This document shows positions 31,576 to 64,000 of a stretch of DNA of 64,000 nucleotides, one piece after another. This DNA comes from Candidatus Latescibacterota bacterium (GTDB lineage: Bacteria > Latescibacterota > UBA2968 > UBA8231). Where the stretch lies: contig OY730476.1 in assembly GCA_963422735.1 (NCBI GenBank), positions 352,001 to 416,000 of the forward strand, read 5' to 3'. Made by a program: the position numbers and the translations under genes. Below the pieces are notes generated by a model that was given only the letters and a program-made list of their open reading frames with translations, searched no databases and had not been told where the DNA came from. Position 1 is the first letter of the stretch. Every line of letters begins with the position of its first letter.

Positions 31576-32298
31576 CTAGGCTGCTGGCAGGACGGGCCGT
31601 TCGACGTATTCGACGTAGAGTTGCTCCAAGTCGGCTTCTTGGAACTCGTCGCGGGTGAGCGTCTTGACCAGATGGCCCTCGACCATGATGCCGAGCCGGT
31701 CGGCGATCACGCGTGCGCGGAACACGTCGTGGGTGGTCATCCAAATGGCCTTGCCTTCGTGGCGCAGCTCATCCAATAGCTCCAAAAACTCGGCCCCAGA
31801 CTTGGGATCGAGACCCGAGGTCGGCTCGTCGAGCAGCACGATGCGGGCGTCTTTGGCGATGGCAATGGCAATGCCTAGCTTCTGGCGCATCCCCTTGGAA
31901 AACTCCTTGACCCGTCGGTCAAACGCCTCCTCTTGCAAGCCCACGCGTGCCATGATCGAGTCGTAGTGCGCGGCGTCTTGGGACGGCTGGCCGCTCAAGC
32001 GGGTGAAGAAATCCAAGTTCTGCCGGGCACTAAAGTTGCCGTAGAGCATGACGTTTTCCGAGACATAGGCCACGTGCTTTTTGGCCTCTAAGGGCTGCTC
32101 GGTGATGTCGATGCCGCACAGCTTGACCGTGCCTTTTGTGGGTTCGGTAAAGCCCAACGCGACCATCAAGGTGGTGGTCTTGCCCGCGCCGTTGGCGCCG
32201 AGCATGGTGAAGACCTCGCCTTCGTGAATGGTCAGGTTGAGGTCGGTGACGGCTTTGACGTCCCCGTAGTGCTTGGAAAGTCCGATGATCTCCAACAT
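31576..32298 (-). CDS. ABC transporter ATP-binding protein
   Basis: GANGAGKTT, FSKGMRQK, LLDEPTSGLD, TTH. Confidence 0.95.
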   Translation of the reverse strand: MLEIIGLSKHYGDVKAVTDLNLTIHEGEVFTMLGANGAGKTTTLMVALGFTEPTKGTVKLCGIDITEQPLEAKKHVAYVSENVMLYGNFSARQNLDFFTRLSGQPSQDAAHYDSIMARVGLQEEAFDRRVKEFSKGMRQKLGIAIAIAKDARIVLLDEPTSGLDPKSGAEFLELLDELRHEGKAIWMTTHDVFRARVIADRLGIMVEGHLVKTLTRDEFQEADLEQLYVEYVERPVLPAA

Positions 32299-32322
32299 GA
32301 GGCGATCCTTTCGTGTGAGTGG

Positions 32323-33717
32323 TTAGGGGTTCGTGGTTTTGTACCATTCGCTTTGGAGTGCGCGGCCGAGTATGCGCCGCAGCTCTTCGGCTGCGAGGAT
32401 GTAGGCTAGGCGCTCGGCAAAATAGCTTTGCTCGGCGAGGTTGACGGCCACCCGCTGGCGGCGGAGGTCATCGAAGTTGAGGTTGCCCATCGCGTTTTCA
32501 AATAGCTCTTCGACCGTGTCCAACCGCTGGCGGGCGACATCGGCGCGCCGGCGCAAAAGCTGGGTGTTTTCCCGCCGGCTTTGCAACTCGTAGAAGGCTT
32601 CGACCACTTCGAGTTCAATCAAGTGGCGGGTCTCGTCGCGGTCTTGGCGCAGTTCGGTAAGCCGCGCCCGTTCCTCGGCCGACTGCGCCAACCGCCGACC
32701 GCCTTGGAACAGCGGCAGCGACAGGTTGGCCATCACCCGCCAGCCCTCGCCCCTGGCCAGCGCGGGGTCTAAGCCCTGGCTGGCCAGCGACCGGCGACCG
32801 GAACCCACTACCGTCCACGTTTGGCCGTTGCCACTCCAGTGCAAGCCGAGGTCGGTGTCTTGGACCTTCTTGGTCAGTTGCAGGCCGACGTGGGGTAGCC
32901 ACTGCCAGAACACCCGGCGCGCCTGCCGCCGCTGTTGGTCTATTTGCCAGCCGAGTTCGGCCAGATGCGGCCGGTTGGCACAGGCTTCCTCAATGAGGGC
33001 GGGCAAATCCGCTTCGCTGGGATCGAGGAGCTGGAGTTTTTCGTAGGGCGGACCGACGATCTCGATGGCGCGGAGCGAGCGTTTGCCCACCAGGCCGATC
33101 TGGGTGAATAGCTGCAGATGCAGGGTGCGCAGGGTGCGCTGGAGGTGGTTGATGCGCGTCTGCTCCTCCAACACCTCTAGCTCGGCCTCGTGCCGTTCCA
33201 CCGGCCGCGCCAAGCCCGCGTCGAGGCGCGTCTGCACCCGCTCCATTTTGGCGCGGAAGTAGGCGAGCAACTCGTCGCGGCTGGCGATTTCGTCGCGGGT
33301 CAGCAGCAGGCGGTAATAGGCTTGGCGCACCTGGCTATCCACGGCGAGGATCGCCTCGCGGTAGCGCGCCTGGGCCGCCTGCTCCCGATGCTGGGCGGCC
33401 CAGCGCGATGAGGTGATGGCGCCGTAGCGCACCAACTCTTGCTGGGCTTGTAAGAACAGCTCGCGTTGCTCCGGTTCCGGCTCCGGCGCATCGGCGAATT
33501 CGCGGCGTTCGTACTCGGCGTTCAGGCCGAGGGTCGGAAGCTGGTCGGCGTAGTCGAGGCGGGTGCGGGCCGACATTTGGTTCCAGCGGGCACGCGCCGC
33601 GCCGAGTACCGGGCTGTGCTGGCCTGCGGCGCGCTGACACGTCGTTAAATCCCATTCCTCGGCATGGGCAACCACCGCGACGCCGAGGACGGCCCAGACC
33701 CATCGATAGGCAGTCAT
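32323..33717 (-). CDS. TolC-family outer membrane efflux protein
   Basis: Signal peptide MTAYRWVWAVLGVAVVAHA (ATGA overlap with upstream stop); two helical/beta repeats, LSLPLFQGG, EVVEAF. Confidence 0.8.
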   Translation of the reverse strand: MTAYRWVWAVLGVAVVAHAEEWDLTTCQRAAGQHSPVLGAARARWNQMSARTRLDYADQLPTLGLNAEYERREFADAPEPEPEQRELFLQAQQELVRYGAITSSRWAAQHREQAAQARYREAILAVDSQVRQAYYRLLLTRDEIASRDELLAYFRAKMERVQTRLDAGLARPVERHEAELEVLEEQTRINHLQRTLRTLHLQLFTQIGLVGKRSLRAIEIVGPPYEKLQLLDPSEADLPALIEEACANRPHLAELGWQIDQQRRQARRVFWQWLPHVGLQLTKKVQDTDLGLHWSGNGQTWTVVGSGRRSLASQGLDPALARGEGWRVMANLSLPLFQGGRRLAQSAEERARLTELRQDRDETRHLIELEVVEAFYELQSRRENTQLLRRRADVARQRLDTVEELFENAMGNLNFDDLRRQRVAVNLAEQSYFAERLAYILAAEELRRILGRALQSEWYKTTNP

Positions 33718-35225
33718 CGCTTGCTCCATTGCACGGTGAAGATGGCGATGCCCAGCACGATGCTCACCAGCAAGAGCACCAACCCGGTGATGCCCCAAAA
33801 CGACCCCTCGCTCTTGATGTTGAGGGTGACGGTGCGCTCGACCGACTCGACCCACTGCCCCTTGTGCTGGGTACTCGCACGGGTCTTGACTTCGTAGCGT
33901 CCTATCTCGGCGCTGTTGACCGGCCGCACGGTCAGTGTGGCCTCTATCTCCTCGCGCGGCGGCAACCGGGCGAGGGCCTGCGGCTCAAAGACGACCTCCC
34001 AGCCCGGCGGCGCCAGGGCTTGCAGGCGGATGTCGAGCAATTCAACCGTGCCGAGGTTGCGTAGCTGCCAAACGGACTTCGACTCGCCCTCGCCCTGGAC
34101 CGACAGGTCCAGGTTGAGGGTGGTCAACTCCAATTCGGCGCGGCCGGTGGGCACCAGCTGCAGTTGCTCGTAGCCAATGCCGAGGGCTTGCAAGCGCACC
34201 GGATCGGCGGTGGCCAACACTGCGGCGTCCACCGCCTGGGGCTCGTAGGCCAGCACCGAGAACAGCAGCGGCTGATCGACGGTGAAGTGCTCGGCCTGTT
34301 CGGGGACGTACACGGTGAGGAGGAGCGAGTCGCTGGAGTGGTCGCGGGAAAAGCGCAGCCGCGACAGCTGGCGGCCCCCGCTCTCGAACGCCCAGCGGAA
34401 GTCGGCCGGCAGCCCGTGCGCCATCAGTTGGAAAATCTTTTCGTCTTCGGCCAGCCGCTCTAACTGCAGCTCGTAGGCGACCGAGTGGCCCAACGAACCT
34501 TCTTGAGAAAACTGGGTGGCATACACGCGCACGACGTCGCGGGCGGAAGCCTTCTCGAGGTGAATGACGTGCTCGTCGGTGCGGTTGAGGTATTCAAGTT
34601 GCACGGTGATTTCCTCGACTTCGGGACGCTGCAAGCCGACCTCGATTTCGACTTCTTCGCCCAGGACCAGCACCGGGATGTGGACTTGGTAGGGCTGGCC
34701 GACCATGACGCGGTCGGCGAGGAGGGTGACGAAGAGGTTGTTGACCTGCAACAGGGAGGCGGCGTCTTGGTCGAGGCCGTTGATGTGGTAGCGGCGGCGA
34801 GCGCGATCGACCATTTGCGCCAAGGGGAGGTCGGAGTCGTTGCGCAAGGTGAGCCGCACGCGGACCTTGTCGCCTTCAACGCCGTATTTTTGTCCGTTGA
34901 CGACCGTCAGGTGGGTGGCGTCGGCCAGCGAGTGGAGGAAGGCGCGCTGGAGGTTCAATTCGGCTCGTTGCCGCGCTTGGCGGGCACGCTCGTAGCGCTC
35001 GCGGGCTAGGCGTAGCTCTTGGCCGGTGACCACGCCGCGCGCCTTGAGGCCGATCATCTGCTCGTGCTCGATGGTGATCTCGGCCTCGCGCGCGTTGGCC
35101 TGCTCCAGCGTCAAGTGAGCCTCTTCGAGGTCGAGCAGGATGCGCTGTTGTTCCTTAGTCAAGGTCTCGGCCGAGGCCGCGAAAGCCCACAGCAGCCAGC
35201 CGAAAACGTAGAAGATAGAGCACAT
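33714..35225 (-). CDS. Membrane-anchored protein with N-terminal coiled coil and NEW3/NPCBM-associated Ig-like domain
   Basis: Signal peptide, coiled coil, LRNLGTVEL..APPGWEV..GRYEV, C-terminal TM helix. Confidence 0.65.
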   Translation of the reverse strand: MCSIFYVFGWLLWAFAASAETLTKEQQRILLDLEEAHLTLEQANAREAEITIEHEQMIGLKARGVVTGQELRLARERYERARQARQRAELNLQRAFLHSLADATHLTVVNGQKYGVEGDKVRVRLTLRNDSDLPLAQMVDRARRRYHINGLDQDAASLLQVNNLFVTLLADRVMVGQPYQVHIPVLVLGEEVEIEVGLQRPEVEEITVQLEYLNRTDEHVIHLEKASARDVVRVYATQFSQEGSLGHSVAYELQLERLAEDEKIFQLMAHGLPADFRWAFESGGRQLSRLRFSRDHSSDSLLLTVYVPEQAEHFTVDQPLLFSVLAYEPQAVDAAVLATADPVRLQALGIGYEQLQLVPTGRAELELTTLNLDLSVQGEGESKSVWQLRNLGTVELLDIRLQALAPPGWEVVFEPQALARLPPREEIEATLTVRPVNSAEIGRYEVKTRASTQHKGQWVESVERTVTLNIKSEGSFWGITGLVLLLVSIVLGIAIFTVQWSKR

Positions 35226-35238: not shown

Positions 35239-36678
35239 CTATACGATGCTGGCTCGCAGCCACGAGCGGTAGGCTAGTATATAGGTGAGCATGGCAAAGA
35301 AGAATAGGCCGATTACATCGACGACAGCGTACCGTAGCAAGGTCTCCGCTGACAGGTTCTCGGTAAAGACCGGCAGGGTATCGGGGTCGATCTTCTGCCG
35401 CGACAGCCCTTGGGCGACGAGGATATGCAGGCTTTTGGGATCGTCGTGGTCGAGGTTTAGCATGGTCTGCTCGAACTGCTGGACAAAGGTGCGCGCCTGC
35501 TCGACAAAGCTTTTGTGGCGCGCCAGCCCGGTGCCGGCGAGCGCTTCCATGCCGTACTGAAAGCAGCCCGTCGGCGACAGGCGCACGATGTGGCGGGCTT
35601 TTTCGACCTCGCCGAGGCTGTAGGCCAGAAATTGGTTTTCCCGGTCTTGGGTAACCCGACGAAAGGCGCGTTCGGCCTCGGCATGCTGGCGCAATATTTT
35701 GGGGTTTCTCATATCGCGCTTCCGTGCATTGCTCCTAAGAGTATTAATTTTCGCTTTTTCTGGAGGTTCGAACTCCCACTCCATTACAACCGCCTCTCCG
35801 AATTCGCGGATCACCACGCGGGAGGCTAGGGCGCCGCCGGCCGCCGGCCAGAGCAGCACCCCGCAAGTCCACAGCAACAGCACCCCGACCAAACTGGAGC
35901 GCGTCGTGCTGCTCCGTATCGATACCCACAGACCCAACGCGACAAAACAGGCCAGATACAAAAGCGATAGGACGACCATGCCGACCAAGCGTCCGACCTC
36001 GACGAGACCCAAGTTCACCTTTGACAGCGCGAGGACGATGAGCAAGTTGACGATGAGGGCGAGGCTCAGCACGATAGAGAGAGCTAGCATCGCACCGAGG
36101 AACTTGCCCAACAGCAGGGTGTGCCGCGGCAGGCTCTGAGCCATAACCAGTTTGAGAGTGCCGCGCTCTTTTTCGCCGATGAAGGCGTCAAAGGTGAACA
36201 ACAGAGCCATGAGGCTGAGCAGACCGCCGATGATAAAGACCCAGTCAATGGCTCGAGTCTTCATTAGTTGGCTGGCCTTGGGTGCCCAGATGCCTACGAT
36301 GTCCCAATAGATGAGTAAAAAGGGATCGTAGAACCAGATGCCGTTGTACTGAAATTTCCAGCTCGGCGTCCAGAGGCGCTCGGGCAGGGCGTCGTTGGCA
36401 CCAACGGCGCAGAACATGAGGGGGCTGGGTTTTTTATAGATATAGTCCTGCCCCCCATGGACTATCAGCTTCCACAAGCCCATTTGGGCGTTGCTGCGGC
36501 CGATTTCTTGCTCGGCTTGGACCTGTTCGAGATAGTGGTCGCGCCGGAACTCGTAGGAGCCGCCGACAAAGCCGAGGGCGTTGAGCACCATCAGCCCTAC
36601 GACTAGCACGAGGGCCAAGCCGAAACGGAGGCTGATGAGGTGATCGAGCAGTTCGCGTTTTATAATGGCTGCTAGCAT
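35239..36678 (-). CDS. ABC-2 type permease (type B, copy 1)
   Basis: IIKRELLDHL..FDAFIGEKERGTLKLV..LLLGKFLG; multiple TM helices. Confidence 0.85.
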   Translation of the reverse strand: MLAAIIKRELLDHLISLRFGLALVLVVGLMVLNALGFVGGSYEFRRDHYLEQVQAEQEIGRSNAQMGLWKLIVHGGQDYIYKKPSPLMFCAVGANDALPERLWTPSWKFQYNGIWFYDPFLLIYWDIVGIWAPKASQLMKTRAIDWVFIIGGLLSLMALLFTFDAFIGEKERGTLKLVMAQSLPRHTLLLGKFLGAMLALSIVLSLALIVNLLIVLALSKVNLGLVEVGRLVGMVVLSLLYLACFVALGLWVSIRSSTTRSSLVGVLLLWTCGVLLWPAAGGALASRVVIREFGEAVVMEWEFEPPEKAKINTLRSNARKRDMRNPKILRQHAEAERAFRRVTQDRENQFLAYSLGEVEKARHIVRLSPTGCFQYGMEALAGTGLARHKSFVEQARTFVQQFEQTMLNLDHDDPKSLHILVAQGLSRQKIDPDTLPVFTENLSAETLLRYAVVDVIGLFFFAMLTYILAYRSWLRASIV

Positions 36679-36717: not shown

Positions 36718-37559
36718 TTATAGGAGGTTGAACAGAAAGTTCTGCGGTACGCCGCCGCTAAAATAGGCCTCTACATGGCACCACATAGCCCGCTGTGGAT
36801 CCCAGACCAGCCGAAAGAAGGACGGGGTGCGCCCCTGCCATGGCCAAGGGGAGATCCCGGCCGGCTCTTCGACGATGAACATGATATCGGCGAAAATCAA
36901 CGACTCGCCTGCCTGTAGAGCGTCCTCCACCTCATCGCGTAGTTTGGGGTGAAAATTCAAGGTAGCTTTGGGGACCATGCCGTGCGTCTGGAGATAGAGC
37001 GCATAGCTATCGTACGCCTCCTGCATCTCGAATACCTTGAATGCGCTGTCGAAAAAGGACACATTCTCAAAAAAATAATCGCGCTTCGTCATGCCGAGTA
37101 TTGCTCTGTGCCCGAGGGTGTATCGCCGATGGGGGCGTATCGGCTAGCGAGAAACTCTTGCAGGAACTCTAACCCGTCGGGGTTATTCGCGCCCTCGCGG
37201 AGGTAAAACGCGGCAGCGAGGCTGTCGCTGCCCGAAGCCGAAAAGACGACCAGAAAGTCGTAGAGCCAATCGCGCCATGCGGCTTCTTGCGCTAGGTCAA
37301 TGGGAGCGCCCAGATCGACGGGGATCGACTCGACCGCCTGCCGCAATTCGGCCCCGGCCGCGACCTTCATCATCTCCTGACCGTGGATGTAGTCGTAGAA
37401 GATTTGCAGGCTGTCGGGGTGGGATGAAAAGCCGCCGTAGTGGGACTTAGCAGGCGCGGCCGTAAGGCTGGAGACGCCTTCCTGTTCTACGCACGCTGAC
37501 TGGGCGAACCAAGCAGCGCTCAGGGCGAAATATAGGACGCGAATAGATAAAGTTTTCAT
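36718..37559 (-). pseudogene. Member of the ~290-aa secreted family, frameshifted near 37112
   Basis: N-half (37089-37559) and C-half (36718-37092) together match 54884-55720. A short deletion lies between DTP and GHRAILG. Confidence 0.75.
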
Positions 37560-37598: not shown

Positions 37599-38417
37599 CT
37601 AGATGGAACTGAACAGAAAATACGGCGTCCCGATGCCGTAAACGATCTCTACATGGCGCCACATCGCCTTGTCCTGATCCCAAGCCATGCGGAAGAAGAA
37701 CGGGGTGCGTACCGCTCCCTCAAAGGCGGCGAACTCCTCAGGCTCTTCGACGATGAACATGACCTCGACAAAGGTCTGTGGTTTGCCCGCTTGGAGGTGC
37801 TCTTGGACCTCGCGCTCCATTTTGGAGGGGTTACCTGATGCGGCCCCGGGTGGAATCATGCCGCTGTCTATGAGGTAAGCGAAATAAGGGCTGTACCCAG
37901 CCTGCTTCTCGGACACCTCAAACGCGCTGTCGAAAAAGGATACCTTTCCGAAGTAGTAATCGCATTCATTCCTGTCGAGGAGTTGCCGGTGCCCCGCTTT
38001 GAGGATATCAAAAGGCGTTTCGCCTTTTAGGAGGCCCTTGCTTGCAAGCTTGCTTTTTAACTCCTCTATCCTTTCGGGATTATTGACGCCCTCGCGGAGA
38101 TAAAACGCGGCGGCGAGGCTGTCGCTACTCGAAACCGAAAAGGCGACTAAGAGATCGTAGAGCCAGGTGCGCAGGTCGGCCTCTTGCGCGGGAGTGATAG
38201 GGGTGTCCCCCTCGACGGGGATGGCCGCAATGGCCTGCTGCAATTCGTCACCGGCCTCGACGTTTATCATCTCCAAGCTGTTGACATAGTCGAAAAAGGC
38301 TTGTTGAACGATTAGGATGCTATCGGGGTGATTGATGGAGTAGCCGCCGTACTGGGCTTTCGGCTCGGCAGAGACGCTGGAGGCGGCGAACCAAGCGGCG
38401 ATTAAGGCGAAATACAA
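37599..38417 (-). CDS. Uncharacterised ~290-aa secreted family member
   Basis: YGG..WLYDLLVAFS..DSLAAAFYLREG..SFFDS..MFIVEEP..FFRMAWD..WRHVE. Start uncertain (TTG). Confidence 0.7.
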   Translation of the reverse strand: MYFALIAAWFAASSVSAEPKAQYGGYSINHPDSILIVQQAFFDYVNSLEMINVEAGDELQQAIAAIPVEGDTPITPAQEADLRTWLYDLLVAFSVSSSDSLAAAFYLREGVNNPERIEELKSKLASKGLLKGETPFDILKAGHRQLLDRNECDYYFGKVSFFDSAFEVSEKQAGYSPYFAYLIDSGMIPPGAASGNPSKMEREVQEHLQAGKPQTFVEVMFIVEEPEEFAAFEGAVRTPFFFRMAWDQDKAMWRHVEIVYGIGTPYFLFSSI

Positions 38418-38463
38418 AGTTTCTAGATACCTCTTCTGGTTTTGGGTTGGGTTGGGTTGGGTG

Positions 38464-38501
38464 GCCCCGGAATAGCGGCGATTAAGCCACTATCCCGGGG
38501 C
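38464..38501 (-). terminator. Stem-loop downstream of the peptide gene
   Basis: GCCCCGGAATAGCGGC / GCCACTATCCCGGGGC, imperfect 16-bp stem. Confidence 0.55.
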
Positions 38502-38556
38502 GCATTGGGTGGAGGGAGAGGGCGAGTGGCCTAGACTAGTCGCCCCTGAAGGCTGA

Positions 38557-38736
38557 TTAGGAAGTGCATACCGCAGTCCCGCTCTCGCACGTGCAACTGG
38601 TCTTCCAACCGATTGCCTTGCACTTACTCCCATCAGGGCAAGTGATACTGCAATAAATAGCCTCGGCCTTCTGCGGCAGGAAGCTGGCGATCAAGCTCGT
38701 GAGGCCAATGGCCAGCCGGATGATGCGCTTTTTCAT
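38557..38736 (-). CDS. 6-Cys secreted peptide precursor P1 (59 aa, not in ORF track)
   Basis: MKKRIIRLAIGLTSLIASFLPQKAEA|IYCSITCPDGSKCKAIGWKTSCTCESGTAVCTS; RBS AAGGGAG. Confidence 0.9.
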   Translation of the reverse strand: MKKRIIRLAIGLTSLIASFLPQKAEAIYCSITCPDGSKCKAIGWKTSCTCESGTAVCTS

Positions 38737-38895
38737 GATGATCTCCCTTGATCTGGTTTGCTGCGTTGTCTCGGAGGCGATCTCCGAGGTGAAGCACTGG
38801 CGGCTAGCGGCCAGTTTAGACGATGTGTTTTATAAGCGTTACTTCCTTTCTGTTGCTGTGGAAGAGTGTGGGTTGTTGCTTCAGTAAGACCTATC

Positions 38896-38911
38896 GCAAT
38901 CTTCGTGCCAA
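38896..38911 (-). promoter_or_regulatory. Sigma-54 promoter
   Basis: TTGGCACGAAGATTGC, consensus match. Confidence 0.85.
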
Positions 38912-39055
38912 TGCGTGACCAGTGGTCGTCAATCGCGCCGAATCCTCTGATTATATGAATCATAACTTATTGTTAAGTAATGGTTTATAAAAAATAAACT
39001 AAATTTTATCGCCGTCTCTCAGGCCCTTTGTGCGACCCTTTTAACGGCCTAAAAG

Positions 39056-39093
39056 TGCGATAATATATCGCACAAATGCGTCTAAACATCGCA
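39056..39093. promoter_or_regulatory. Putative bEBP enhancer, 2 x TGCG-N9-CGCA at 21-bp period
   Basis: TGCGATAATATATCGCA and TGCGTCTAAACATCGCA. Confidence 0.75.
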
Positions 39094-39182
39094 CGGACGC
39101 GCCTGTCGGTTGTACTAAGCCGCCCTTGCTCTGAAGGGGTCGGCTGGGTCGGCTTCTCAGGGAGGGTGTGGGCAGACGCACC

Positions 39183-39214
39183 AGCGGGCAGCCCGGTCCT
39201 ATGGGCTGCCCGCT
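39183..39214. terminator. Stem-loop after the permease gene
   Basis: AGCGGGCAGCCC-N8-GGGCTGCCCGCT. Confidence 0.6.
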
Positions 39215-39236
39215 TTATTCGTTGTGGAATTTCAGA

Positions 39237-40808
39237 TTACTTGGCGTCGTAGCGCGCAAAGAGCCAGTTGGCGAGGACAAAGAGCCCGGCCGCATACAGC
39301 AACAGGGCGGTTAGATCCGGCAAGGCGTGGCTCAGACTCCTGGCGGCCGTCCAGCCGCGCTCGTGAAACCTCGGCAAGTCGCGCAGGTCGGCGCGCCAGC
39401 CGGGGTCGTCGTTGAACCACTCGCGGGCCCCGAAGGCATCGCGCTCTTCGAGAAAGGTGACGAGTTGCCCGCGATAGGCGCGGACTTGGTTGATGAAGTC
39501 GTAGTATTCGCGTCGGCTGGTGCCGGCGAAAACACTGGCGGCTTGGGCATAGGTCCCGGCGGGCAGAAGGCGCTGGAGATAGGTGTTCCAGCGTTGGATG
39601 CGGCGGGGGAAGTTTTCGAGCAGGGGAGCTTTGGCGTGCCAAGCGCGCTGGACGTACTTCAGGCGCAACCGCTCGCCGGTGCGGATGATGTTTTGGAACT
39701 CGGCGAGTGCGGGCGAATCGACTACATTCGACATATAGAGAACAGGTTTCTGCTCATCGTCATAGTAAGCGCCAGTTCCCCCCCAATGTGTTTTAGTCCC
39801 GCGTCCCGGTTGTGGAGGGAGTTGCTCAACCATCTCTACGGGTTGGTACTGGGTCTGGCCGTGCGCCCGAGCGAGGTTAGTGACCTCCTGATCGAACTCC
39901 TTCCACACTTGCGCGGCCCTGTGATGGGCTTGCTTGTGCTTTTCGCCCATGTTGGCTTGCTCGTTGAGCCAGGCCGTGATACTGTCGGGCAGCACAATCG
40001 CCAGCAGTGCCCACATAAACAGCGCGTAAATCAAGCTGGTCGCCGAGCGGTGCGTGGCGCACGAGATCGCCAGTCCAATTAGATAGAACACGAGCAGATA
40101 CAGCAGCGACAGTGCGAACAGCAGCCCCAACCGCGCCCACTCGCCGGTCCCGATCTCGATATGCTCGGTGCCCAATAGCAAGATCATCAGCAGGATAAAG
40201 CCGAGGGCGGTCGGAATGGCCAGCGTGGTCAGGCCAGCGAGGACTTTGCCGGCGAGGACTTGGGCGCGGCTGACGTTGGTCGTCAGCATCAGCCGCAGGG
40301 TGCCGTCCTCCTTTTCGCCGGAGATGGCTTCGCTGGCGATGAGAATGGCCAGCAGGCCGAGCACGAGTTGGAAGATGTACACTATGTCGAAGGAGGCAAA
40401 GATGGCGAGGTAGGGATTGCCCGACTGGAAGGGAGCAATCGCCTCGGTTTGGTAGGGCACCTCAAAGAGCAGGACCTTGACGGCTTGCCCCACCTCTTGT
40501 TCGACGCCTTGGGCGAACACCTCCAAAGGGCGTGGGGGCCGTAGAGCACGCGGAGCCGCCTCGGCATCGAATACACCGACGACCGGACCGAAGTGGTCGC
40601 TGCCTAGGGCCGAATAATAGGTGATTTCGTAGAATTTGTTGTCTTCAACGGCGCGTTGGGCGAGGTAGCTGGACTTTTTCTGGACATAAGTCTGGCTGAT
40701 GAGCATCCCGTTGGCGATGATGAGCACTACCGCGAGGGCGGTGCAAGCGGCGAAGCGCTGGCTGAGCAGGTGGCTGAGCATCTCTTTTTTGAACACAATG
40801 CCGATCAT
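39237..40808 (-). CDS. ABC-2 type permease (type A, copy 1)
   Basis: VFKKEMLSHL..EAISGEKEDGTLRL..VLAGK; C-terminal DLPRF..FARYD. Confidence 0.85.
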   Translation of the reverse strand: MIGIVFKKEMLSHLLSQRFAACTALAVVLIIANGMLISQTYVQKKSSYLAQRAVEDNKFYEITYYSALGSDHFGPVVGVFDAEAAPRALRPPRPLEVFAQGVEQEVGQAVKVLLFEVPYQTEAIAPFQSGNPYLAIFASFDIVYIFQLVLGLLAILIASEAISGEKEDGTLRLMLTTNVSRAQVLAGKVLAGLTTLAIPTALGFILLMILLLGTEHIEIGTGEWARLGLLFALSLLYLLVFYLIGLAISCATHRSATSLIYALFMWALLAIVLPDSITAWLNEQANMGEKHKQAHHRAAQVWKEFDQEVTNLARAHGQTQYQPVEMVEQLPPQPGRGTKTHWGGTGAYYDDEQKPVLYMSNVVDSPALAEFQNIIRTGERLRLKYVQRAWHAKAPLLENFPRRIQRWNTYLQRLLPAGTYAQAASVFAGTSRREYYDFINQVRAYRGQLVTFLEERDAFGAREWFNDDPGWRADLRDLPRFHERGWTAARSLSHALPDLTALLLYAAGLFVLANWLFARYDAK

Positions 40809-40871: not shown

Positions 40872-41927
40872 TCAGGCCGCCCGAGCCGGATGCCGCCGCA
40901 GCAAGGCTTCTATCTCGGCCAGCTCGTCGGGCGATACCTCTCCGTACCGCTCGTGCAGATGCAACAGGTCGCGCAAGACTAATTCGGCGGGCATGAGCGG
41001 ATCGGGCCAAATGCCCGCCCGCCACAGTTCGATCAACCACAGCTTGGGGTCGCCGTTTTCCCGTACCATATAGTCGATGGCTTGTTCCCGGGTGCGCTGC
41101 TCGGCGGCGAGTCTGCACGGATCGGAAAACTCGTGATAGTGGTACAAGTGATACGTCAGGGCGTGGCGGGCAAAGCCCGGACCGACGCCGACGCGCTGCA
41201 ACCGATAGGCCAAATCCCATCCCTCGGAAAATGGAATGTCCGCCGCAAAGCCGCCCACCGCGCCGAAGGCTTGGCGTGGCACCGCGCTGTTGTGCGGATA
41301 GAAACCGAGAAAGCCCAGTGGCGAATCCGGATGCGCCGCGAACAGTGCCGCGACCTGATCTTGCATGGTCTTCAGTTCGTCAAAGGGATAGCCGCCTTCT
41401 TGAGCACGGGCGTGGATGCCGGCAAAGTCGTGGCGGATTTGGTCTTCGGTGATCAGCACCTGCTCTCGATGGAGCCGCAGGAAGTCGGCTAAGACGCTCG
41501 GGGTGCGCTCGGGGTCAAAGATGGCCTGCTGCGGGTCGGGCAGATACTCGAGGAGGGGCAGGCTATACAGGAAGCCGCACACATAGCGCTGGCGTCCTCC
41601 GCGCTCCCATTCCGCCCAAAGGTGCTCCAACCAACCGGGATGCGGCAAGGCGTCGCCGTCGAGAAAGGCCACCAACTGGCCTCGCGCCTGTTCGACGCCG
41701 GCATTGCGTGCTAAGCAGCGACCCACGTTGGGACGCATCGGCACCACGTGTACGTCTGGATATTCAGCGGCTAGCATGGCGTCCGTACCATCGGTGCAGC
41801 CATCGTCAACGACGATGATCTCAAAACGCTCCTTGGGAAAATGCTGGCCGGCCAAGCCACACAACACCAAGCGCAGGCGCGCCCGCTGGTTGTGGGTGGC
41901 AATGACGACGGAAGTATCGAGGCTCAT
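40872..41927 (-). CDS. Glycosyltransferase family 2
   Basis: SVVIATHN, VVDDGCTD, ARNAG, FLDGD; paralog of 2196-3239. Confidence 0.9.
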   Translation of the reverse strand: MSLDTSVVIATHNQRARLRLVLCGLAGQHFPKERFEIIVVDDGCTDGTDAMLAAEYPDVHVVPMRPNVGRCLARNAGVEQARGQLVAFLDGDALPHPGWLEHLWAEWERGGRQRYVCGFLYSLPLLEYLPDPQQAIFDPERTPSVLADFLRLHREQVLITEDQIRHDFAGIHARAQEGGYPFDELKTMQDQVAALFAAHPDSPLGFLGFYPHNSAVPRQAFGAVGGFAADIPFSEGWDLAYRLQRVGVGPGFARHALTYHLYHYHEFSDPCRLAAEQRTREQAIDYMVRENGDPKLWLIELWRAGIWPDPLMPAELVLRDLLHLHERYGEVSPDELAEIEALLRRHPARAA

Positions 41928-45457: not shown

Positions 45458-45537
45458 CTGCATTCTCCTTGTGATAGACGGCAGGGGCCGTCGGGTGTCT
45501 GCTTCGTTTGCAGCGGGTTGTCTTTGGAGATAGATAT

Positions 45538-45553
45538 GCAATAAGCGTACCAA
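45538..45553 (-). promoter_or_regulatory. Sigma-54 promoter
   Basis: TTGGTACGCTTATTGC. Confidence 0.75.
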
Positions 45554-45664
45554 CAGGATGCTAATTGCTCGTTGATATTGTTTAAGTATTTATTAAACAA
45601 TATCTTAGGGGAAAAAACAGCAGGTGCTCGGCTGCGTAGTAGATGCGGTTTTGCAACCTATCGG

Positions 45665-45702
45665 TGCGCTAAGATATCGCAGTCCTGCGATATCTTAGCG
45701 CA
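45665..45702. promoter_or_regulatory. Putative bEBP enhancer, two mutually inverted TGCG-N9-CGCA sites
   Basis: TGCGCTAAGATATCGCA-gtcc-TGCGATATCTTAGCGCA (21-bp period). Confidence 0.75.
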
Positions 45703-49414: not shown

Positions 49415-49557
49415 GGCGTAGCCAGCGGGCGATAATCGCGCCTATTTCTTTGATATATTGTTTATAAACATCTGTTATAAAACAATTTATAAAAAGTAAG
49501 CTGATTTTCTTGTCCGTCTCTCAGACTCTTTGCAAGACGCTCGCGATGCGCTAAAAA

Positions 49558-49595
49558 TGCGCTAATACATCGCACCCGTGAGTCGAATTATCGCA
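49558..49595. promoter_or_regulatory. Putative bEBP enhancer, 2 sites at 21-bp period
   Basis: TGCGCTAATACATCGCA and TGAGTCGAATTATCGCA. Confidence 0.7.
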
Positions 49596-49659: not shown

Positions 49660-49791
49660 TCAGCAGCGCCGCGGCGTTTTGTGAGCCTCTTCGATGTCGA
49701 GCCGGATGCGCTGCTGTTCTTTAGTCAGAGTTTCGGCCGAGGCCGCGAAAGCCCACAGCAGCAGGCCTAAACCATAGAAGATGGAGCACAT
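49660..49791 (-). pseudogene. Truncated 5' remnant of the 33714-35225 gene
   Basis: MCSIFYGLGLLLWAFAASAETLTKEQQRIRLDIEEAH matches the first 37 aa of 33714-35225, then similarity stops. Confidence 0.85.
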
Positions 49792-58784: not shown

Positions 58785-61307
58785 TTACAGGCACTCAAAG
58801 GTCAGATGACATTCGTAGTGCAGCCCTTCGGGGCTGATCAGTTGCCGGTGGGGTTCGGTCTTGGCGTTGGGATTTTGTACCACTAGTTGCGGTATCTCCT
58901 TGGCCGAGTTTGAACACACTATCCTGTGGCAGTCTATATGGCCGAAGTAGTAGCCGAAGAATGCTTCGCTGCGTGCTTTGATGCGCTGGCGCAGTGCCGC
59001 GTCGGCGACATTGTCCTCGGTCATAGCGATGTCGCCGAGGTAGATGCCGTGGAACTCCACCGGCAACCAGCCAGTCTGGGGCGTGTATAGCTCCATCCAA
59101 GTATGGCAGAAGATGGGGCCATCGTACGTGGTGATCCCATAGCGGCCCGGTCCTTGGGGCGCAACAGCCAAACCCCCAGTCACTTCGCGAGCCGGGATAT
59201 CGAGTAAGCGGCATAGCGCGATAAAGGCTCGCGTTAGGGTCAGACAATGGCCGTCCTCGTTGCGGAGCGTCCTTTCCGTGCTACAAACTAAGCACTGGCA
59301 TTTCTCAGTGGTCTTTTTGAATCGCTTGCTATGCACTAGATACTGGTATATGTGCCGAGCCTTCTCCATGTCGTCAAGAGCCGGTTCGTCTAAGCGCAGA
59401 GTATCCAAGAAATCGCGAACCAGATGCGACTCGCTCAGTTTGTCTTCTACTTGCGTATAGTGGCGATGCTCTCCGGCGGTCAGCGACGCGGGCGTCTGCC
59501 CGGCGAGTGGCAGGTTATATACTTCAACCTCGCAGGAATACGAGAAGGTGAGCGTCTCATCAGCCGGGTTGATGTGGCAGGGATAGGCGTAGAAGAAACC
59601 AGCGCGTGGAGCCAGATAGGGGTGCAACTCACTTGGGTTGCAGTCAATTAACTCGACGACCGGCTGCTGGGGCAAGCGCAGGGGATAGGGTAAAAAAAGC
59701 TGCGCTGGTCCTTCGCTTGTGCAGGACTTTGTATGTGCCTTGTAGGTATAGGCCAACCGGTAGCGTTGGCTGGGGATGCGGGCTTTTAACTTGCCGCCGT
59801 GATGAGTGAGAAAAGGTGCCCGCATTTGTTCCCGTGCTCGGTAGTCTGGCTCAAAGAAGCGAGGCTCGTGATCGTAGAGCCAATTCCACGAGTTGTCGGT
59901 ATCGTACCATACCAGTCGTCCGCGGCGCAGATGCGGCATGCCCCGCTGACGCGCATCGCTCAGCATGGCGCGGATGGCCGAGCGAGGAAAGTCGTCGGTG
60001 ATAACTGGATAGAGGTGGCGGATGAATTCCTCCTCGACCGCCATATTTTTTGGATCGAGCTGTGCGCTCTGGTGGTGCGTGAATAGCAGGCCATCTATCA
60101 CATCGGCGGCCGCCTCGCCGCCTTTCCAAGCGGAGACATGGGACGCAAAGGCGGCACAGCGGGTGCTGAATTCCTCATAGTGGTCGAATAGGTAGCGCAC
60201 TTGCTCGGCCAAGTCTTCGGCTTGGGCAAAGTGCTGGCGCGACAGTTTCAGGCCGAGGCCGAGGTCGCGCACTCGGTTGAGGTGGTATTCTTGATCGAGG
60301 TGTTCGGGTGCCCCTAGGATCGGCACGCCCTCGGCCAGCGCGTGGTAGATGGAGCCAATGCCGCCAATGCCGATAAAGAGCGCAGCGTGGCGCATGGCCA
60401 AGCGGGCGGGCAGGTACTCGACGATCCGCACGTTGGCCGAGGGTGCTTCCACCGCATAGCGGCCGGCCGTAGTAACTAGCAGGCGATAGGGCAAGGGGGC
60501 CAAGGCCCGCAGGACGGCAGGCAAAAAGCGGTCCTCTACGCCGGTGCTGCCGGCATTGAAGTAGATGAGGGGCAGCGAGGGGTTCCAGCCAGCGTCGGCT
60601 AGGGCCGCGGGTGGTTCATCGGCTATGGGCTCGTCTTCGATGAGCGGCCCGACGTAGTGATGGGAGGGGGGCACCGGTCCGGCGGACGGATGGAACTGAG
60701 GCACATCGGCCAGCAGGAACGCGCTGCGGTAGGGCCGCGTCCGGGCGAAGTGCTGAGTTAGGTATTCGTCAAAACGACCGGCCCGCACCGGGAAGTAGTC
60801 AGGCAAGCGAATGGGGCTAGAGTAGGAGGGCAGGTTGTACGCCGCGTCTATAAAGGCGATGTCGATACCTTCCAAGGCGGCCGTTAGCCGCAGTGTGGGT
60901 CGAAAGTCGGCGATGAGCAAGGAGGGCTGTACTTGGCGCACGAGTGCTTGCTCGGCCTCGATGCAGCGCCGGATCCACTCGTCGTCGTAATATTCGTACA
61001 CGCCCCGGGCTAGGTACTCGTCCATGCGTTGCTGCGGCATGGTTTCGACATCGTAGAGTGTGAATCCCTCGGCCGCAATGCGCTGGGCGTGCGGTCCCCG
61101 TCCGGCGAAGATGATTTCGTACCCACGTTGACGCAGCGAACGCGCCACCACGAGCGGGCGAATCACATGGGCCAAACTGTAGCCGTGAAAGAAGACTAAG
61201 AGGCGATGCTGGTCGCGCTGGAGGAACGCCTCTTGCTCCATTTTGGCCAGCAAGGCGTTCCAAACGGCCAACCAATCCCACAGCTTTTTGTTGAGTTGTG
61301 CTAACAT
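58785..61307 (-). CDS. GT1-like glycosyltransferase + transglutaminase-like fusion
   Basis: Close paralog of 42080-44590; CQCLVC, GHCLTL, CHTW, GWLPVEFHG. Confidence 0.85.
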   Translation of the reverse strand: MLAQLNKKLWDWLAVWNALLAKMEQEAFLQRDQHRLLVFFHGYSLAHVIRPLVVARSLRQRGYEIIFAGRGPHAQRIAAEGFTLYDVETMPQQRMDEYLARGVYEYYDDEWIRRCIEAEQALVRQVQPSLLIADFRPTLRLTAALEGIDIAFIDAAYNLPSYSSPIRLPDYFPVRAGRFDEYLTQHFARTRPYRSAFLLADVPQFHPSAGPVPPSHHYVGPLIEDEPIADEPPAALADAGWNPSLPLIYFNAGSTGVEDRFLPAVLRALAPLPYRLLVTTAGRYAVEAPSANVRIVEYLPARLAMRHAALFIGIGGIGSIYHALAEGVPILGAPEHLDQEYHLNRVRDLGLGLKLSRQHFAQAEDLAEQVRYLFDHYEEFSTRCAAFASHVSAWKGGEAAADVIDGLLFTHHQSAQLDPKNMAVEEEFIRHLYPVITDDFPRSAIRAMLSDARQRGMPHLRRGRLVWYDTDNSWNWLYDHEPRFFEPDYRAREQMRAPFLTHHGGKLKARIPSQRYRLAYTYKAHTKSCTSEGPAQLFLPYPLRLPQQPVVELIDCNPSELHPYLAPRAGFFYAYPCHINPADETLTFSYSCEVEVYNLPLAGQTPASLTAGEHRHYTQVEDKLSESHLVRDFLDTLRLDEPALDDMEKARHIYQYLVHSKRFKKTTEKCQCLVCSTERTLRNEDGHCLTLTRAFIALCRLLDIPAREVTGGLAVAPQGPGRYGITTYDGPIFCHTWMELYTPQTGWLPVEFHGIYLGDIAMTEDNVADAALRQRIKARSEAFFGYYFGHIDCHRIVCSNSAKEIPQLVVQNPNAKTEPHRQLISPEGLHYECHLTFECL

Positions 61308-61360: not shown

Positions 61361-61376
61361 GCAGTTATCGCGCCCG
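61361..61376 (-). promoter_or_regulatory. Degenerate sigma-54 promoter
   Basis: CGGGCGCGATAACTGC keeps GG-N10-GC and has the same enhancer context as the other promoters. Confidence 0.5.
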
Positions 61377-61500
61377 TTGTGAGCCAGCGGCTGGCAAATG
61401 GGCTAACGAAATTGAGCTAACTACCTGTTAGATAAGGAATTATAAAAGTAACGATAATTTTTGTCGAGCCTTTTGCCGCAATCGCTTGACCCTATGAAAA

Positions 61501-61559
61501 TGCGACAATATATCGCATAAGTGCGTCTAATCATCGCGTTAATGCGATTCATCATCGCA
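61501..61559. promoter_or_regulatory. Putative bEBP enhancer, 3 sites at 21-bp period
   Basis: TGCGACAATATATCGCA, TGCGTCTAATCATCGCG, TGCGATTCATCATCGCA. Confidence 0.75.
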
Positions 61560-61784: not shown

Positions 61785-63239
61785 TTAGACAATGCTGGCA
61801 CGCAGCCACGACCGATAGGCGAGCATGTAGGTGAGCACGGCAAAAAAAGAGAGACCGATTACATTGACGACGGCGTGTTGCAGCAAGGTTGTCGCCGACA
61901 GGTCTTCGGTGAAAACCGGCAGGGTGTCGGGGTCGATTTTCTGCCGCGACAGCCCTTGGGCGACGAGGTGGATGTGCAGGCTGTTGGGGTCGTCTCGGTC
62001 TCGGTTGAGCAGGGTCTGCTCAAACTGCTGGACAAAGGTGCGCGCCTGCTCGACAAAGCTTTTGTGGCGCGCCAGCCCGGTGCCGGCGAGCGCCTCCATG
62101 CCATACTGAAAACAGCCCATGGGCGACAGGCGCACGATGTGGCGGGCGTTTTCGATCTCGCCGAGACTGTGAGCCAAAAAGCGGTCTTCGCGGTCTTGGT
62201 GAAATTGGCGCACAGCGCGTTGGGCGTCGGCCAACTGACGAATCTTCTCGGGGTTTTTCAGATCGCGGTGCTGTAAACGGAAAGCGAGGTCATGAAGTTT
62301 ATCGTGGGCTGGCGTGTTATTATTTGCAAAGCCCCATCCCAGCACTAGCTCCTCCTCGAATTCGCTGACCAACACGCGGGCGGCCAGGGCGCCGCCGGTG
62401 GCCGGCCAGAGCAACACCCCGCAGGTCCACATCAACAGAACGCCTACTAAACTTGAGCGTGTCGTGCTGCTCCATATCGACACCCACAGCCCCAACGCGA
62501 TAAAGCAGGCCAGATACAAAAGCGATAAGCCGACCATACCGATGATGCGCCCGGCCTCGACGAGATCCAAGTTCACCTTAGACAGCGCGAGGACGATGAG
62601 CAAGTTGACGACGACGGCGAGGCTCAGCACGAGGGCGAGAGTCAGCATCGCGCTGAGGAATTTGCCCAACAGCAGGGTGTGGCGCGGCAGGCTCTGCGCC
62701 ATGACCAGCTTGAGGGTGCCGCGCTCTTTTTCGCCGATGAAGGCGTCAAAGGTAAATAATAAGGCCATGAGGCTGAGCAGGCCGCCGATGATAAAGACCC
62801 AGTCGATGGCTTGGGTCTTCAGCAGTTGGCTGGCCTTCGGTGCCCAGATGTTGATGATGTCCCAATAGATGAGTACAAAGGGATGATAGACTTTGATGCC
62901 GTTGGAAGTGTGTTGGTACCCGCCCGTTGTCCTAAGGCGCTCGGGCAGGGCGTCGTCGGCACCAGTGGCACAAAACATGAGGGGGCTGGGTTTTTTATAG
63001 ATATAGTGCTGCCCCGACTGAAGGATCAGCTTCCACAGGCCCTGTTGGGCGTTGCGGTGCCCCACTTCTTGCTCAGTTTGGACTTGCTCGAGATAGTGGT
63101 TGCGTCTGAACTCGTAGGATCCGCCGACAAAGCTGAGGGCGTTGAGCACCATCAGCCCGACCGTCAGCACGAGGGCCAAGCCAAAGCGCAGGCTGAGGAG
63201 GTGGTCTATCAGTTCGCGTTTTACAATAGCGGCTAACAT
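61785..63239 (-). CDS. ABC-2 type permease (type B, copy 4)
   Basis: Start MLAAIVKREL at 63239; very close to 49805-51256. Confidence 0.85.
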   Translation of the reverse strand: MLAAIVKRELIDHLLSLRFGLALVLTVGLMVLNALSFVGGSYEFRRNHYLEQVQTEQEVGHRNAQQGLWKLILQSGQHYIYKKPSPLMFCATGADDALPERLRTTGGYQHTSNGIKVYHPFVLIYWDIINIWAPKASQLLKTQAIDWVFIIGGLLSLMALLFTFDAFIGEKERGTLKLVMAQSLPRHTLLLGKFLSAMLTLALVLSLAVVVNLLIVLALSKVNLDLVEAGRIIGMVGLSLLYLACFIALGLWVSIWSSTTRSSLVGVLLMWTCGVLLWPATGGALAARVLVSEFEEELVLGWGFANNNTPAHDKLHDLAFRLQHRDLKNPEKIRQLADAQRAVRQFHQDREDRFLAHSLGEIENARHIVRLSPMGCFQYGMEALAGTGLARHKSFVEQARTFVQQFEQTLLNRDRDDPNSLHIHLVAQGLSRQKIDPDTLPVFTEDLSATTLLQHAVVNVIGLSFFAVLTYMLAYRSWLRASIV

Positions 63240-63270
63240 GAGAAGGCATCTTTCTCCGAAAGGGGTTTCC

Positions 63271-64000
63271 TCACATGGCGTCGTAGCGCGCAAAGAGCCG
63301 GTTGGCGAGGACAAAGAGAATAGCTGCATAGAGCAATAGGGCCGTTAGAGCTGGCAAGGCGTAGCCCAAGCTCTCGGCGACGGTCCAGCCGCGCTCGTGA
63401 AACCGCGGTAGGTCGCGCAGGTCGGCACGCCAGCCGGGATCGTCGTTGAACCACTCGCGGGAGCCAAAGGCATCGCGGTCTTCCAAAAAGGCGATGATCT
63501 GCCCGCGATAGGCGCGCACTTGGTCGATGAAGTCGTCGTATTCGCGTCGGCTGGTGCCGGCGAGGATGCTGGCGGCTTGGGCGTAAGCCCCGGCGGGCAG
63601 GAGGCGTTGGAGTTGGTCGTTGAGGCGTCGGATGCGGTGGGGGAATCCTTCGAGCAGTGGGGCCTTCTCGTTCCAAGCGCGCTGAGCGTATCTCAGGCGC
63701 AACCGCTCACCAGCGCGGACGATGTCTTGGAACTTAGCCAGCGCGGGCGAAGCGACGACATTAGACAAATAGAGGAGAGGCGTCTGTCCGTCTCTTTTAG
63801 AGTAGGTTCCAGTTCCGTCATTGTGGACTCCAGTCCCTCGATTGGGCTGTGGTTCCCCCAGCTTGACCATATCTGTGGGGTAATACATAGTCTGGCCGTG
63901 CGCCCGCGCGAGGTTAGTGACCTCTTGATCGAACTCCTGCCACACCTGCGCGGCCTTGTGGTGGGCTTGGGCGTGCTTTTCGCCCATGTTGGCCTGCTCA
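63271..64000 (-). CDS. ABC-2 type permease (type A, copy 4), 5' end outside the window
   Basis: C-terminal half matches 39237-40808 and 51279-52853. Confidence 0.85.
   Translation of the reverse strand, partial: EQANMGEKHAQAHHKAAQVWQEFDQEVTNLARAHGQTMYYPTDMVKLGEPQPNRGTGVHNDGTGTYSKRDGQTPLLYLSNVVASPALAKFQDIVRAGERLRLRYAQRAWNEKAPLLEGFPHRIRRLNDQLQRLLPAGAYAQAASILAGTSRREYDDFIDQVRAYRGQIIAFLEDRDAFGSREWFNDDPGWRADLRDLPRFHERGWTVAESLGYALPALTALLLYAAILFVLANRLFARYDAM

Follow-up and report, generated by a model that had tools for sequence, protein, structure and literature searches.

What is the function of a long, co-directional array in which genes for small cysteine-rich peptides alternate with glycosyltransferase, transglutaminase-like and ATP-binding cassette (ABC) transporter genes? 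The array is located in a stretch of 64,000 nucleotides (the window), which corresponds to positions 352,001 to 416,000 of contig C1 of G000, a 4.95-Mb Candidatus Latescibacterota genome assembled as one contig. It extends from position 31576 to approximately 8.5 kb past the end of the window, and its parts in the window lie on the minus strand. The system is real and lineage-restricted, and it is without a match in the libraries and papers searched. Tentatively, it may be read as a polymorphic array of tailored antibacterial peptides with a cognate immunity protein and an ABC/TolC export machinery. The evidence comes from the peptides and the secreted proteins encoded beside them, from the conservation of the associated enzymes, and from loci in which only some of the parts persist.

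Peptides and their predicted binding partner

An earlier note on this DNA had described three peptide open reading frames (ORFs) with six cysteines and five copies of an unknown secreted protein. All of them are present, one copy of the secreted protein being broken:

38557-38736, minus strand: peptide 1, with a 26-residue signal/leader and a 33-residue core containing six cysteines
38465-38500, minus strand: conserved RNA hairpin with two-sided changes, between the peptide and binding-protein genes
37599-38417, minus strand: secreted NTF2-like protein, predicted to bind peptide 1, TTG start; the fold was seen on the paralog at 54884-55720
36718-37559, minus strand: binding protein, broken by a 16-nt deletion
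44660-45463, minus strand: binding-protein paralog
49007-49225, minus strand: peptide 2, six-cysteine core, GTG start, followed by a permease and not by a binding protein
56745-56921, minus strand: peptide 3, six-cysteine core
55766-56677, minus strand: binding-protein paralog directly 3' of peptide 3
54884-55720, minus strand: binding-protein paralog, the copy whose fold was modelled

By inspection, the peptide leaders possess a basic N-region, a hydrophobic stretch, a proline at position -6 and an Ala-x-Ala motif; they end with Pro-Gln-Lys-Ala-x-Ala and look like Sec-type substrates of signal peptidase I. The cores comprise 30 to 45 residues. For 12 peptides of the commonest subtype, pooled pairwise comparison, in which the pairs are not independent, gave a dN/dS of 0.33 in the leader, compared to 0.94 in the core (1.13 without the cysteines). 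All six cysteines are invariant across the 12 peptides, and there is therefore no obvious free cysteine for a sugar. Among 14 type A peptides, the leader is 73% and the core 40% identical (28% without the cysteines); this order is reversed in the partner protein, with 47% identity in the signal and 61% in the mature part. A peptide profile has nine matches in G000, all of which lie at such loci, and it finds matches in 15 of the 31 genomes of the genus, while no family of Pfam, NCBIfam or the PDB fits the peptides consistently. Judged from these sequence features, they are very probably real exported peptides.

Of 35 non-duplicate peptide cases (41 rows before duplicates were removed), 32 have the gene for the secreted protein as the adjoining labelled gene on either the upstream or the downstream side, and natural peptide-partner fusions were found in G000 and in P0253. 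In all, 320 relatives of the protein were found; a profile search against 1.84 billion representatives yielded 60 matches, which include one distant full-length protein (E 4e-4) and some repeat-protein noise. The copy at 37599-38417 starts with TTG where its relatives have ATG. The fold model of the copy at 54884-55720 has a pLDDT (predicted local distance difference test) of 82. A model of the complex between peptide 1 (residues 27-59) and the partner encoded downstream (residues 17-272) scored 0.78, compared to 0.02 for the best of three controls. Of 157 solved pairs, 116 attain the mark applied to this score, as do 2 of 215 mismatched ones; for the alignments used here, these counts are only approximate. 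The runs agree in at least 91% of the contacts, and the pLDDT of the partner is at least 85.

Evidence independent of the model score is provided by the variability of the predicted interface. The 23 contact residues have an entropy of 2.56, versus 1.25 for the rest of the protein and 1.44 for other polar columns, and the contacted strand (residues 190-197) is the most variable of 248 eight-residue segments in 72 sequences. In ten close copies, dN/dS is 1.07 at the interface and 0.34 elsewhere. The variability of the strand is confined to peptide-linked copies: interface identity is 44% in ten of these, compared to 77% in 16 copies encoded at loci without peptides. Identity elsewhere is 83% in both groups; the copies from peptide-free loci also have about seven residues fewer before the strand. 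The formerly unknown partner is now assigned the role of a predicted peptide-binding protein, and the modelling suggests that it probably binds the core of the adjacent peptide.

Co-occurrence of the partner with the peptides holds only in part: the binding protein is present in 25 of the 31 genus genomes, 10 of which have no peptide match. At two loci (L084 and L087), a regulator, binding proteins and the transporter are kept, and neither peptide nor enzymes are present. Orphan partner genes were also observed after a beta-propeller sigma-54 activator and two secreted C-terminal redoxin proteins (L073:1482-9490, L082, L083, L088).

The GT1-transglutaminase fusion and its companions

Two fusions of a GT1 glycosyltransferase with a transglutaminase domain, each followed by a GT2 glycosyltransferase, are encoded in the array, as had been described earlier, although the second GT2 turned out to be broken:

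42080-44590, minus strand: GT1-transglutaminase fusion 1 (His47/Asp134; Cys684-His731-Glu747)
40872-41927, minus strand: GT2 glycosyltransferase, intact, without a membrane segment (Pfam 1.3e-26)
58785-61307, minus strand: GT1-transglutaminase fusion 2 (77% identical to fusion 1)
58081-58767, minus strand: GT2 with an internal deletion
57550-58064, minus strand: GT4 glycosyltransferase remnant
52893-53893, minus strand: frameshifted TPR protein, with an intact paralog shortly beyond the window

Neither the fusion nor the GT2 contains a membrane segment. The GT-B half of the fusion is closest to natural-product and sterol transferases (Z 34.3, root-mean-square deviation 2.9, 363 residues aligned), and a fold search with the full fusion returned matches filled by this half. 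In a profile search, the transglutaminase half gave weak matches only, to two transglutaminase-like structures. This half has the Pfam Transglut_core domain in 44 of 44 cases, and its predicted catalytic residues Cys684, His731 and Glu747 are invariant in 81 fusions and kept in nine more, once as Asp. Residues 420-476 may form a winged helix, as their secondary structure suggests.

A precursor gene was found at 54 of 71 non-identical full-length fusion loci. At the 44 loci with at least 5 kb on both sides, a GT2 is present in every case, a TPR protein in 37 and a precursor in 37; the seven loci without a precursor include one with a broken peptide and three relocated C1 sets (L061, L062, L154). 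The precursor count is not a blind test, since seven of the precursors had been added manually and the same loci had served to train the profiles. Peptides and enzymes co-occur within the genus: the 15 genomes (of 31) with type A/B peptides are also the ones with a fusion of clade A or B, whether intact or broken, whereas seven carry only fusions of other clades and nine none at all. Broken copies were assigned to a clade by identity and context; many of the genomes are incomplete or flagged for contamination, and all are kin. Of the earlier idea of a RiPP-like (ribosomally synthesised and post-translationally modified peptide) or toxin/signal system, the counts support a co-regulated, diversifying peptide system in which the enzymes accompany precursor genes. 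Permeases and the NEW3/TolC/ATPase set do occur at loci with neither peptide nor enzyme; the clade A/B fusion was not found without peptides.

A quick tree of 53 rows, outside of which lie the divergent copies fetched later, separates the fusions into five clades (support 100 for four and 93 for one), each with its own precursor family. Clade A comprises the array of the window and clade B loci with an ECF (extracytoplasmic function) sigma factor. Clades C1 and C2 have long leaders, FG-GAP neighbours, an A24 peptidase and redoxins; the leaders, which we take to resemble those of Flp pilins and which adjoin the A24 peptidase, matched no pilin family. Clade C loci encode the same leader with cysteine-rich cores, some of them in tandem, fused to a C-terminal FlgD-Ig domain (eight ORFs at five loci); FlgD-Ig-fused precursors with tandem cores were seen at L045:3892-4884, L045:4841-5797, L046:3759-4580, L060, L065 and L029. 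Clade D has an acidic, cysteine-free precursor directly upstream and regulators on the flanks. At L040:9699-9941 and other clade D loci, the single precursor has a proline-rich tail and is encoded between a pair of beta-propeller sigma-54 activators, together with an AraC-type response regulator, a kinase and the enzyme trio; the arrangement looks like a peptide signalling circuit. Four divergent loci (clade E) encode a GT2-TPR fusion, a C39 peptidase, a double-glycine precursor, a CAAX/Rce1-like protein and a Yip1/YknW-like protein, and one further divergent locus has a 10-cysteine precursor and a DsbA-like protein. Seven fusion-linked precursor families are thus known, including the bacteriocin type with double glycine and C39. 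A compact six-gene cluster with a membrane-anchored C39 and a precursor with signal, double-glycine site and hydrophobic core (L145:2340-9974, L146, L147, L149) is probably the simplest test case for the enzymes.

By genome taxonomy, 68 further genomes belong to the family of the window, and 31 of them contain the C-terminal half of the fusion, compared to none of 84 genomes from 13 other families of the phylum; the GT1-transglutaminase fusion is confined to one family. According to record titles, 60 genome loci with relatives of the fusion are distributed over Latescibacterota (51), Gemmatimonadota (6), Planctomycetota (2) and one unclassified entry. A word search for stand-alone relatives of the transglutaminase half yielded 13 proteins, none named from another lineage and several on short contigs; there was no plasmid match. 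Transglutaminase clusters of 418-456 amino acids, commonest in Pseudomonadota, were found in the Atlas with a score of 0.96.

On the basis of this linkage, we lean towards the view that the enzymes act on the precursors. The earlier note had drawn a parallel to the transglutaminase-like leader peptidases of lasso peptide pathways. Leader removal is an unlikely task for the domain because the C39-bearing loci keep an intact triad; no lasso cyclase or RiPP recognition element (RRE) was found in the array either. Transfer or trimming chemistry is more likely than leader cleavage, as every locus type has another way of leader removal.

Promoters and regulation

Five sigma-54 promoters sharing one enhancer motif had been proposed for the array. 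The motif is present at all five, but only three of the promoter sites are strict:

38896-39093, minus strand: sigma-54 site (38896-38910) and two enhancer-like repeats (39056, 39077)
45538-45702, minus strand: sigma-54 site with one mismatch and two enhancer-like repeats
49399-49595, minus strand: sigma-54 site and enhancer-like repeats
57073-57292, minus strand: sigma-54 site and three enhancer-like repeats
61361-61559, minus strand: degenerate sigma-54 site and three enhancer-like repeats

The three strict -24/-12 sites compare with 0.25 expected; the fourth site (45552) has one mismatch, and the fifth (61361-61375) retains only GG-N10-GC. Upstream of all five are 17-bp palindromic repeats spaced 21 bp. 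A matrix trained on the repeats of the window was run over the 4.95-Mb genome and five shuffles, which revealed ten pairs at 21-bp spacing genome-wide, compared to none in each shuffle. Seven of the pairs lie in the window, and the three outside belong to two further peptide promoters that had been left out of the training. Single sites (50 in the genome) mean little, because the shuffles give 28 to 40. An RpoN gene is present in the genome, and a search for sigma-70 sites found none above chance.

At its far end, the array closes with genes for a sensor kinase and for a response regulator of the sigma-54 type. The domains of the homologous kinase are dCache, HAMP, PAS and kinase, and the genome-wide scan found no enhancer pair upstream of the kinase gene. 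The hairpin at 38465-38500 has two stems, with two-sided changes in 8 of 18 predicted pairs, and could stabilise or attenuate the transcript between the peptide and partner genes. A comparison with Rfam gave no match. Outside the array, a sigma-54 activator fused to a Reg_prop/YYY beta-propeller (5292-8438) lacks both a signal and a membrane segment and is therefore apparently a cytoplasmic sensor.

Export and accessory proteins

The permeases, together with the DUF1573 and TPR genes and the single NEW3/TolC/ATPase set, were all found as described earlier. Three of the four permease pairs are adjacent and one is split by a peptide cassette:

31576-32298, minus strand: ABC ATPase, the sole one in the array (Pfam ABC_tran 1.5e-30)
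32323-33717, minus strand: TolC-like outer-membrane channel (Pfam OEP 2.4e-35), start assigned from the translation
33714-35225, minus strand: NEW3-domain protein (Pfam NPCBM_assoc 6.6e-13; hydropathy)
35239-36678, minus strand: ABC-2 permease type B (Pfam ABC2_membrane_2, weak DUF3526)
39237-40808, minus strand: ABC-2 permease type A
45818-47278, minus strand: ABC-2 permease type B, divergent (~55% to the others)
47291-48853, minus strand: ABC-2 permease type A, divergent (~58% to the others)
49660-49791, minus strand: remnant of the 5' end of a NEW3 gene
49805-51256, minus strand: ABC-2 permease type B
51279-52853, minus strand: ABC-2 permease type A
53906-54844, minus strand: secreted DUF1573 protein carrying a CGC motif, a candidate catalyst of disulfide formation
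61785-63239, minus strand: ABC-2 permease type B
63271-64000, minus strand: 3' part of an A-type permease; the gene begins beyond the window

Four permease pairs are thus accompanied by one ATPase, one adaptor and one TolC. According to its hydropathy, the NEW3 protein has an N-terminal signal, a heptad-like helical stretch and a C-terminal membrane anchor, and may act as a periplasmic adaptor between the ABC transporter and TolC. The NCBIfam matches of the permeases to the MutG, PmtD and GldF models are weak and all far below the cut-off (MutG, 22 bits versus 117), and a type IX secretion marker was not found above its cut-off. In the DUF1573 protein, GCGCT is kept in 16 of 16 sequences; the consulted part of PMC9312934 describes DUF1573 as a selenoprotein family with a UGC motif. 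A domain scan of the array ORFs found no thioredoxin family; redoxins occur in clade C loci.

Proposed mechanism and alternative explanations

In the proposed mechanism, the sensor kinase and sigma-54 activator encoded past the window, an assignment that is provisional, would switch on the cassettes through the conserved motif. The precursor would be made with its Sec-type signal and, before export, tailored in the cytoplasm by the GT2, with the TPR protein as a possible precursor holder, and by the GT1-transglutaminase fusion; gene linkage suggests the addition of one or two sugars and an amide/acyl transfer or trimming by the Cys-His-Glu triad. In the periplasm, the signal would be cut after Ala-x-Ala, and three disulfides would form, perhaps via the DUF1573 protein. 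The core is then predicted by modelling to be bound through an edge strand of the secreted NTF2-like protein, which most likely acts as cognate immunity. Heterodimeric ABC-2 permeases with the common ATPase, adaptor and TolC would pump the peptide out, and recombination between the cassettes would expand, shuffle and break the array.

An antibacterial role with immunity may apply, but it is proposed with reserve. Most weight is carried by an asymmetry in persistence, as expected between immunity and biosynthesis genes: partner and transporter persist without peptides (L084, L087), as in non-producers that remain immune, whereas the clade A/B enzyme was seen only where peptides are present. Several points weigh against this interpretation. 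Modification, export, binding and killing are all predictions from sequence and modelling. The cores share no common conserved acceptor residue and their cysteine number is even, the catalytic His of the GT1 is kept in 69 of 81 aligned fusions and absent in 12, and seven of the 44 well-covered loci have no intact precursor nearby. The definition of precursor families D, E and F started from the genes next to the enzyme, and the co-occurrence partly reflects physical linkage among related genomes. Peptide 2 precedes a permease and not a binding protein. The likeness of the partner to NTF2-like folds is weak (best Z 6.5, root-mean-square deviation 3.7, 113 residues aligned): the top 50 matches are mostly NTF2-like, none reaches Z 8, and Foldseek returned nothing at E 0.001. 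Cognate specificity is beyond the reach of the model because a single pair was modelled and close cousins of the true partner also pass. A Sec signal furthermore turns cytoplasmic modification into a race with export; bufferins provide a precedent for modification despite such a signal, but there the signal is dispensable for modification (consulted part of PMC11626156). Finally, the acidic, cysteine-free precursors of clade D, which have only regulators around them, fit a signal better than a weapon.

In one alternative, the core would be a strain-specific pheromone, presented or buffered by the NTF2-like protein and read by the dCache kinase and the sigma-54 activator, for autoinduction or kin recognition. 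The domains of the homologous kinase and the clade D loci, which consist of regulators, one small precursor and the enzyme trio only, are in line with signalling, and a co-diversifying ligand and binder would fit it equally well. However, no enhancer pair precedes the kinase gene, four very different peptides share a single kinase, the neighbourhood of clade E is of the bacteriocin type, and immunity accounts better for binding proteins that lack a peptide and for transport loci that lack a producer; signalling is considered unlikely. It is likewise improbable that the enzymes spare the precursors and make or detoxify a small-molecule glycoside, or protect the cell in its cytoplasm, while riding in the sigma-54 regulon of unmodified miniproteins. 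The GT1 half is indeed closest to small-molecule or detoxifying transferases such as YjiC, CalG and OleI/OleD, the precursor families lack a common core motif, and the three clade C1 loci L061, L062 and L154 have the trio without a precursor nearby. Yet each enzyme clade has its own precursor family, the non-producers keep partner and transporter with no clade A/B enzyme found in them, and the GT2-TPR fusion of clade E suggests a polypeptide substrate. An action of the cores on a eukaryotic host or grazers, with the partner as a carrier or chaperone co-exported through TolC, appears quite improbable: the peptides have no significant Pfam or PDB match, and a chaperone would not be expected to be kept without them. 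The fusion of clade C leaders and cores to FlgD-Ig domains, which suggests surface display, would agree with it, and the genus of the window presumably lives in sponges. Latescibacterota have been described from sponges (consulted part of PMC12993501).

For the antibacterial interpretation, a wider proposal is made with greater reserve: fusion, GT2 and TPR protein might form a portable module that places an undescribed modification, glycosylation coupled to amide/acyl transfer, on Sec-exported precursors. A single bacterial family would have re-used the module for no fewer than seven precursor families unrelated to each other, and with several routes of export. In the array, it would supply a polymorphic set of disulfide miniproteins whose NTF2-like immunity proteins co-evolve with them, which would amount to both a new RiPP class and a new kind of pair between peptide and immunity protein. 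If true, the array would represent a new RiPP class with enzymology unseen in the libraries searched, from an uncultured lineage noted for its biosynthetic potential. It would also provide dozens of natural pairs of disulfide miniprotein and binder with a diversifying interface, and a tripartite exporter with several permease pairs per ATPase, adaptor and TolC. Profile-based miners would likely miss the system because no peptide or partner matches a curated family. Four genes in E. coli would suffice for a test of the key claims.

Comparison with known systems

The array behaves like a bacteriocin/RiPP cluster with immunity, but by the defining features tested it does not qualify as a glycocin, lasso peptide or bufferin cluster; that it matches no described class, as stated in the earlier note, agrees with the libraries and searches used. 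Glycocins such as sublancin (SunA/SunS/SunT) share with it the small cysteine-rich precursor, a GT2 and an exporter, and with clade C the redoxins. The analogy does not hold for the array, which has a Sec-type leader, an even cysteine number, the GT1-transglutaminase fusion, a periplasmic partner and TolC, and no peptidase-containing ABC transporter: no C39 domain was found among 25 large array ORFs. Nor was a SunS-type model among 20 NCBIfam and 32 PDB matches, in libraries that presumably contain SunS. SunS carries a TPR domain, to which the GT2-TPR fusion of clade E owes its likeness to glycocins; unlike the array, clade E has a double-glycine leader and a stand-alone C39.

Lasso peptide clusters have a transglutaminase-like Cys protease domain beside the precursor (C96 family, consulted part of PMC10885120), whereas the domain of the array is fused to a GT1 and the leader ends with Ala-x-Ala; a scan of 49 window ORFs revealed neither an asparagine-synthetase-like cyclase nor an RRE. 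Bufferins and other Sec-exported RiPPs resemble the array in their cysteine-rich precursors with Sec signal, including six-cysteine forms (consulted part of PMC11626156); the array differs in its hypervariable cores and dedicated ABC/TolC set. The MNIO (DUF692) enzyme and its partner are absent from the window ORFs scanned. LanFEG immunity and PSM/Gld-type transporters combine two different ABC-2 permeases with one ATPase, a layout that fits the array, but the permeases of the array have large extracytoplasmic loops, a NEW3 adaptor, TolC and four pairs per ATPase. Polymorphic toxin-immunity arrays likewise place a variable effector beside a variable binder, with shuffled cassettes and orphan immunity proteins; here, the effector is a disulfide peptide of 30-45 residues with tailoring enzymes, and there is no sequence match to known immunity families. 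A weak feature likeness to the NTF2-fold proteins Imm-NTF2 and DUF3828 (score 0.79-0.80) is a lead only, and PADLOC gave no match for the core genes. In the literature searched (titles and abstract openings), no description of the system was found, although the supplementary cluster tables of two sponge papers could include loci. The system was not found in the papers searched, including the consulted part of PMC9426513, and the main text of PMC12993501, as far as consulted, mentions neither transglutaminase nor bacteriocin.

Extent, decay and genomic context

Every listed part of the co-directional array of about 32 kb described earlier is at its place on the minus strand, but the array does not end at position 64000. 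It continues, at G000 415,271-424,501, to one more peptide (the fourth), one more binding protein (the sixth), a TPR protein that is intact, and the kinase/sigma-54 regulator pair. A further fusion with GT2 and an 8-cysteine peptide at 1-9059 had been listed alongside it. They are present, but they belong to another enzyme clade, with another precursor family and partner:

1-3239, plus strand: separate locus type, clade C1 fusion (begins before the window) and GT2
5292-11343, plus strand: separate locus type, beta-propeller sigma-54 activator, 8-cysteine precursor (8787-9059) and FG-GAP/FlgD-Ig neighbour

This clade C1 locus (window 1-14900 and G000 341577-351454) contains repeated pairs of 8-cysteine precursor and FG-GAP/FlgD-Ig protein, an A24 peptidase, two redoxins, a TPR protein and DUF4159 paralogs; the catalytic His of the GT1 is absent in the clade.

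Five array genes are broken or remnants: 16 nt are deleted in the binding protein at 36718-37559 and 4 nt in the TPR gene, approximately 380 nt are lost from the second GT2, and approximately 760 nt from the GT4, of which L021 has an intact 416-residue copy; the fifth is the NEW3 remnant. In three other runs, contigs extend over 30 of 30 bins of the stretch. The TPR break is not peculiar to this assembly, as a run from another study crosses it without a gap; an artefact was rejected on this ground. A longer TPR allele, possibly from the paralog, occurs in two runs. Another run, merely guessed to be RNA and not used as evidence, gave short scattered contigs, including over peptides 1 and 2.

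A second locus in G000, an array of type B with ECF sigma factor (1,919,659-1,947,176), carries a 3,829-bp copy of the NEW3/TolC/ATPase block with 99.8% identity and also contains three peptides, a split fusion and a peptide-partner fusion gene. A lone cassette (946,740-948,956) consists of enhancers, promoter, peptide, partner and a permease fragment, and a decayed mini-copy of the array lies at 38,143-39,950. The content of this chromosomal slot varies widely among relatives, between a lone binding-protein gene (L077) and shuffled cassettes that extend over tens of kb. The array is flanked in the window (23392-31311) by a STAS/HATPase protein, NurA, a HAS-barrel protein, HerA and a DNA methylase fragment, and the HerA-NurA block marks the same slot in the relatives.

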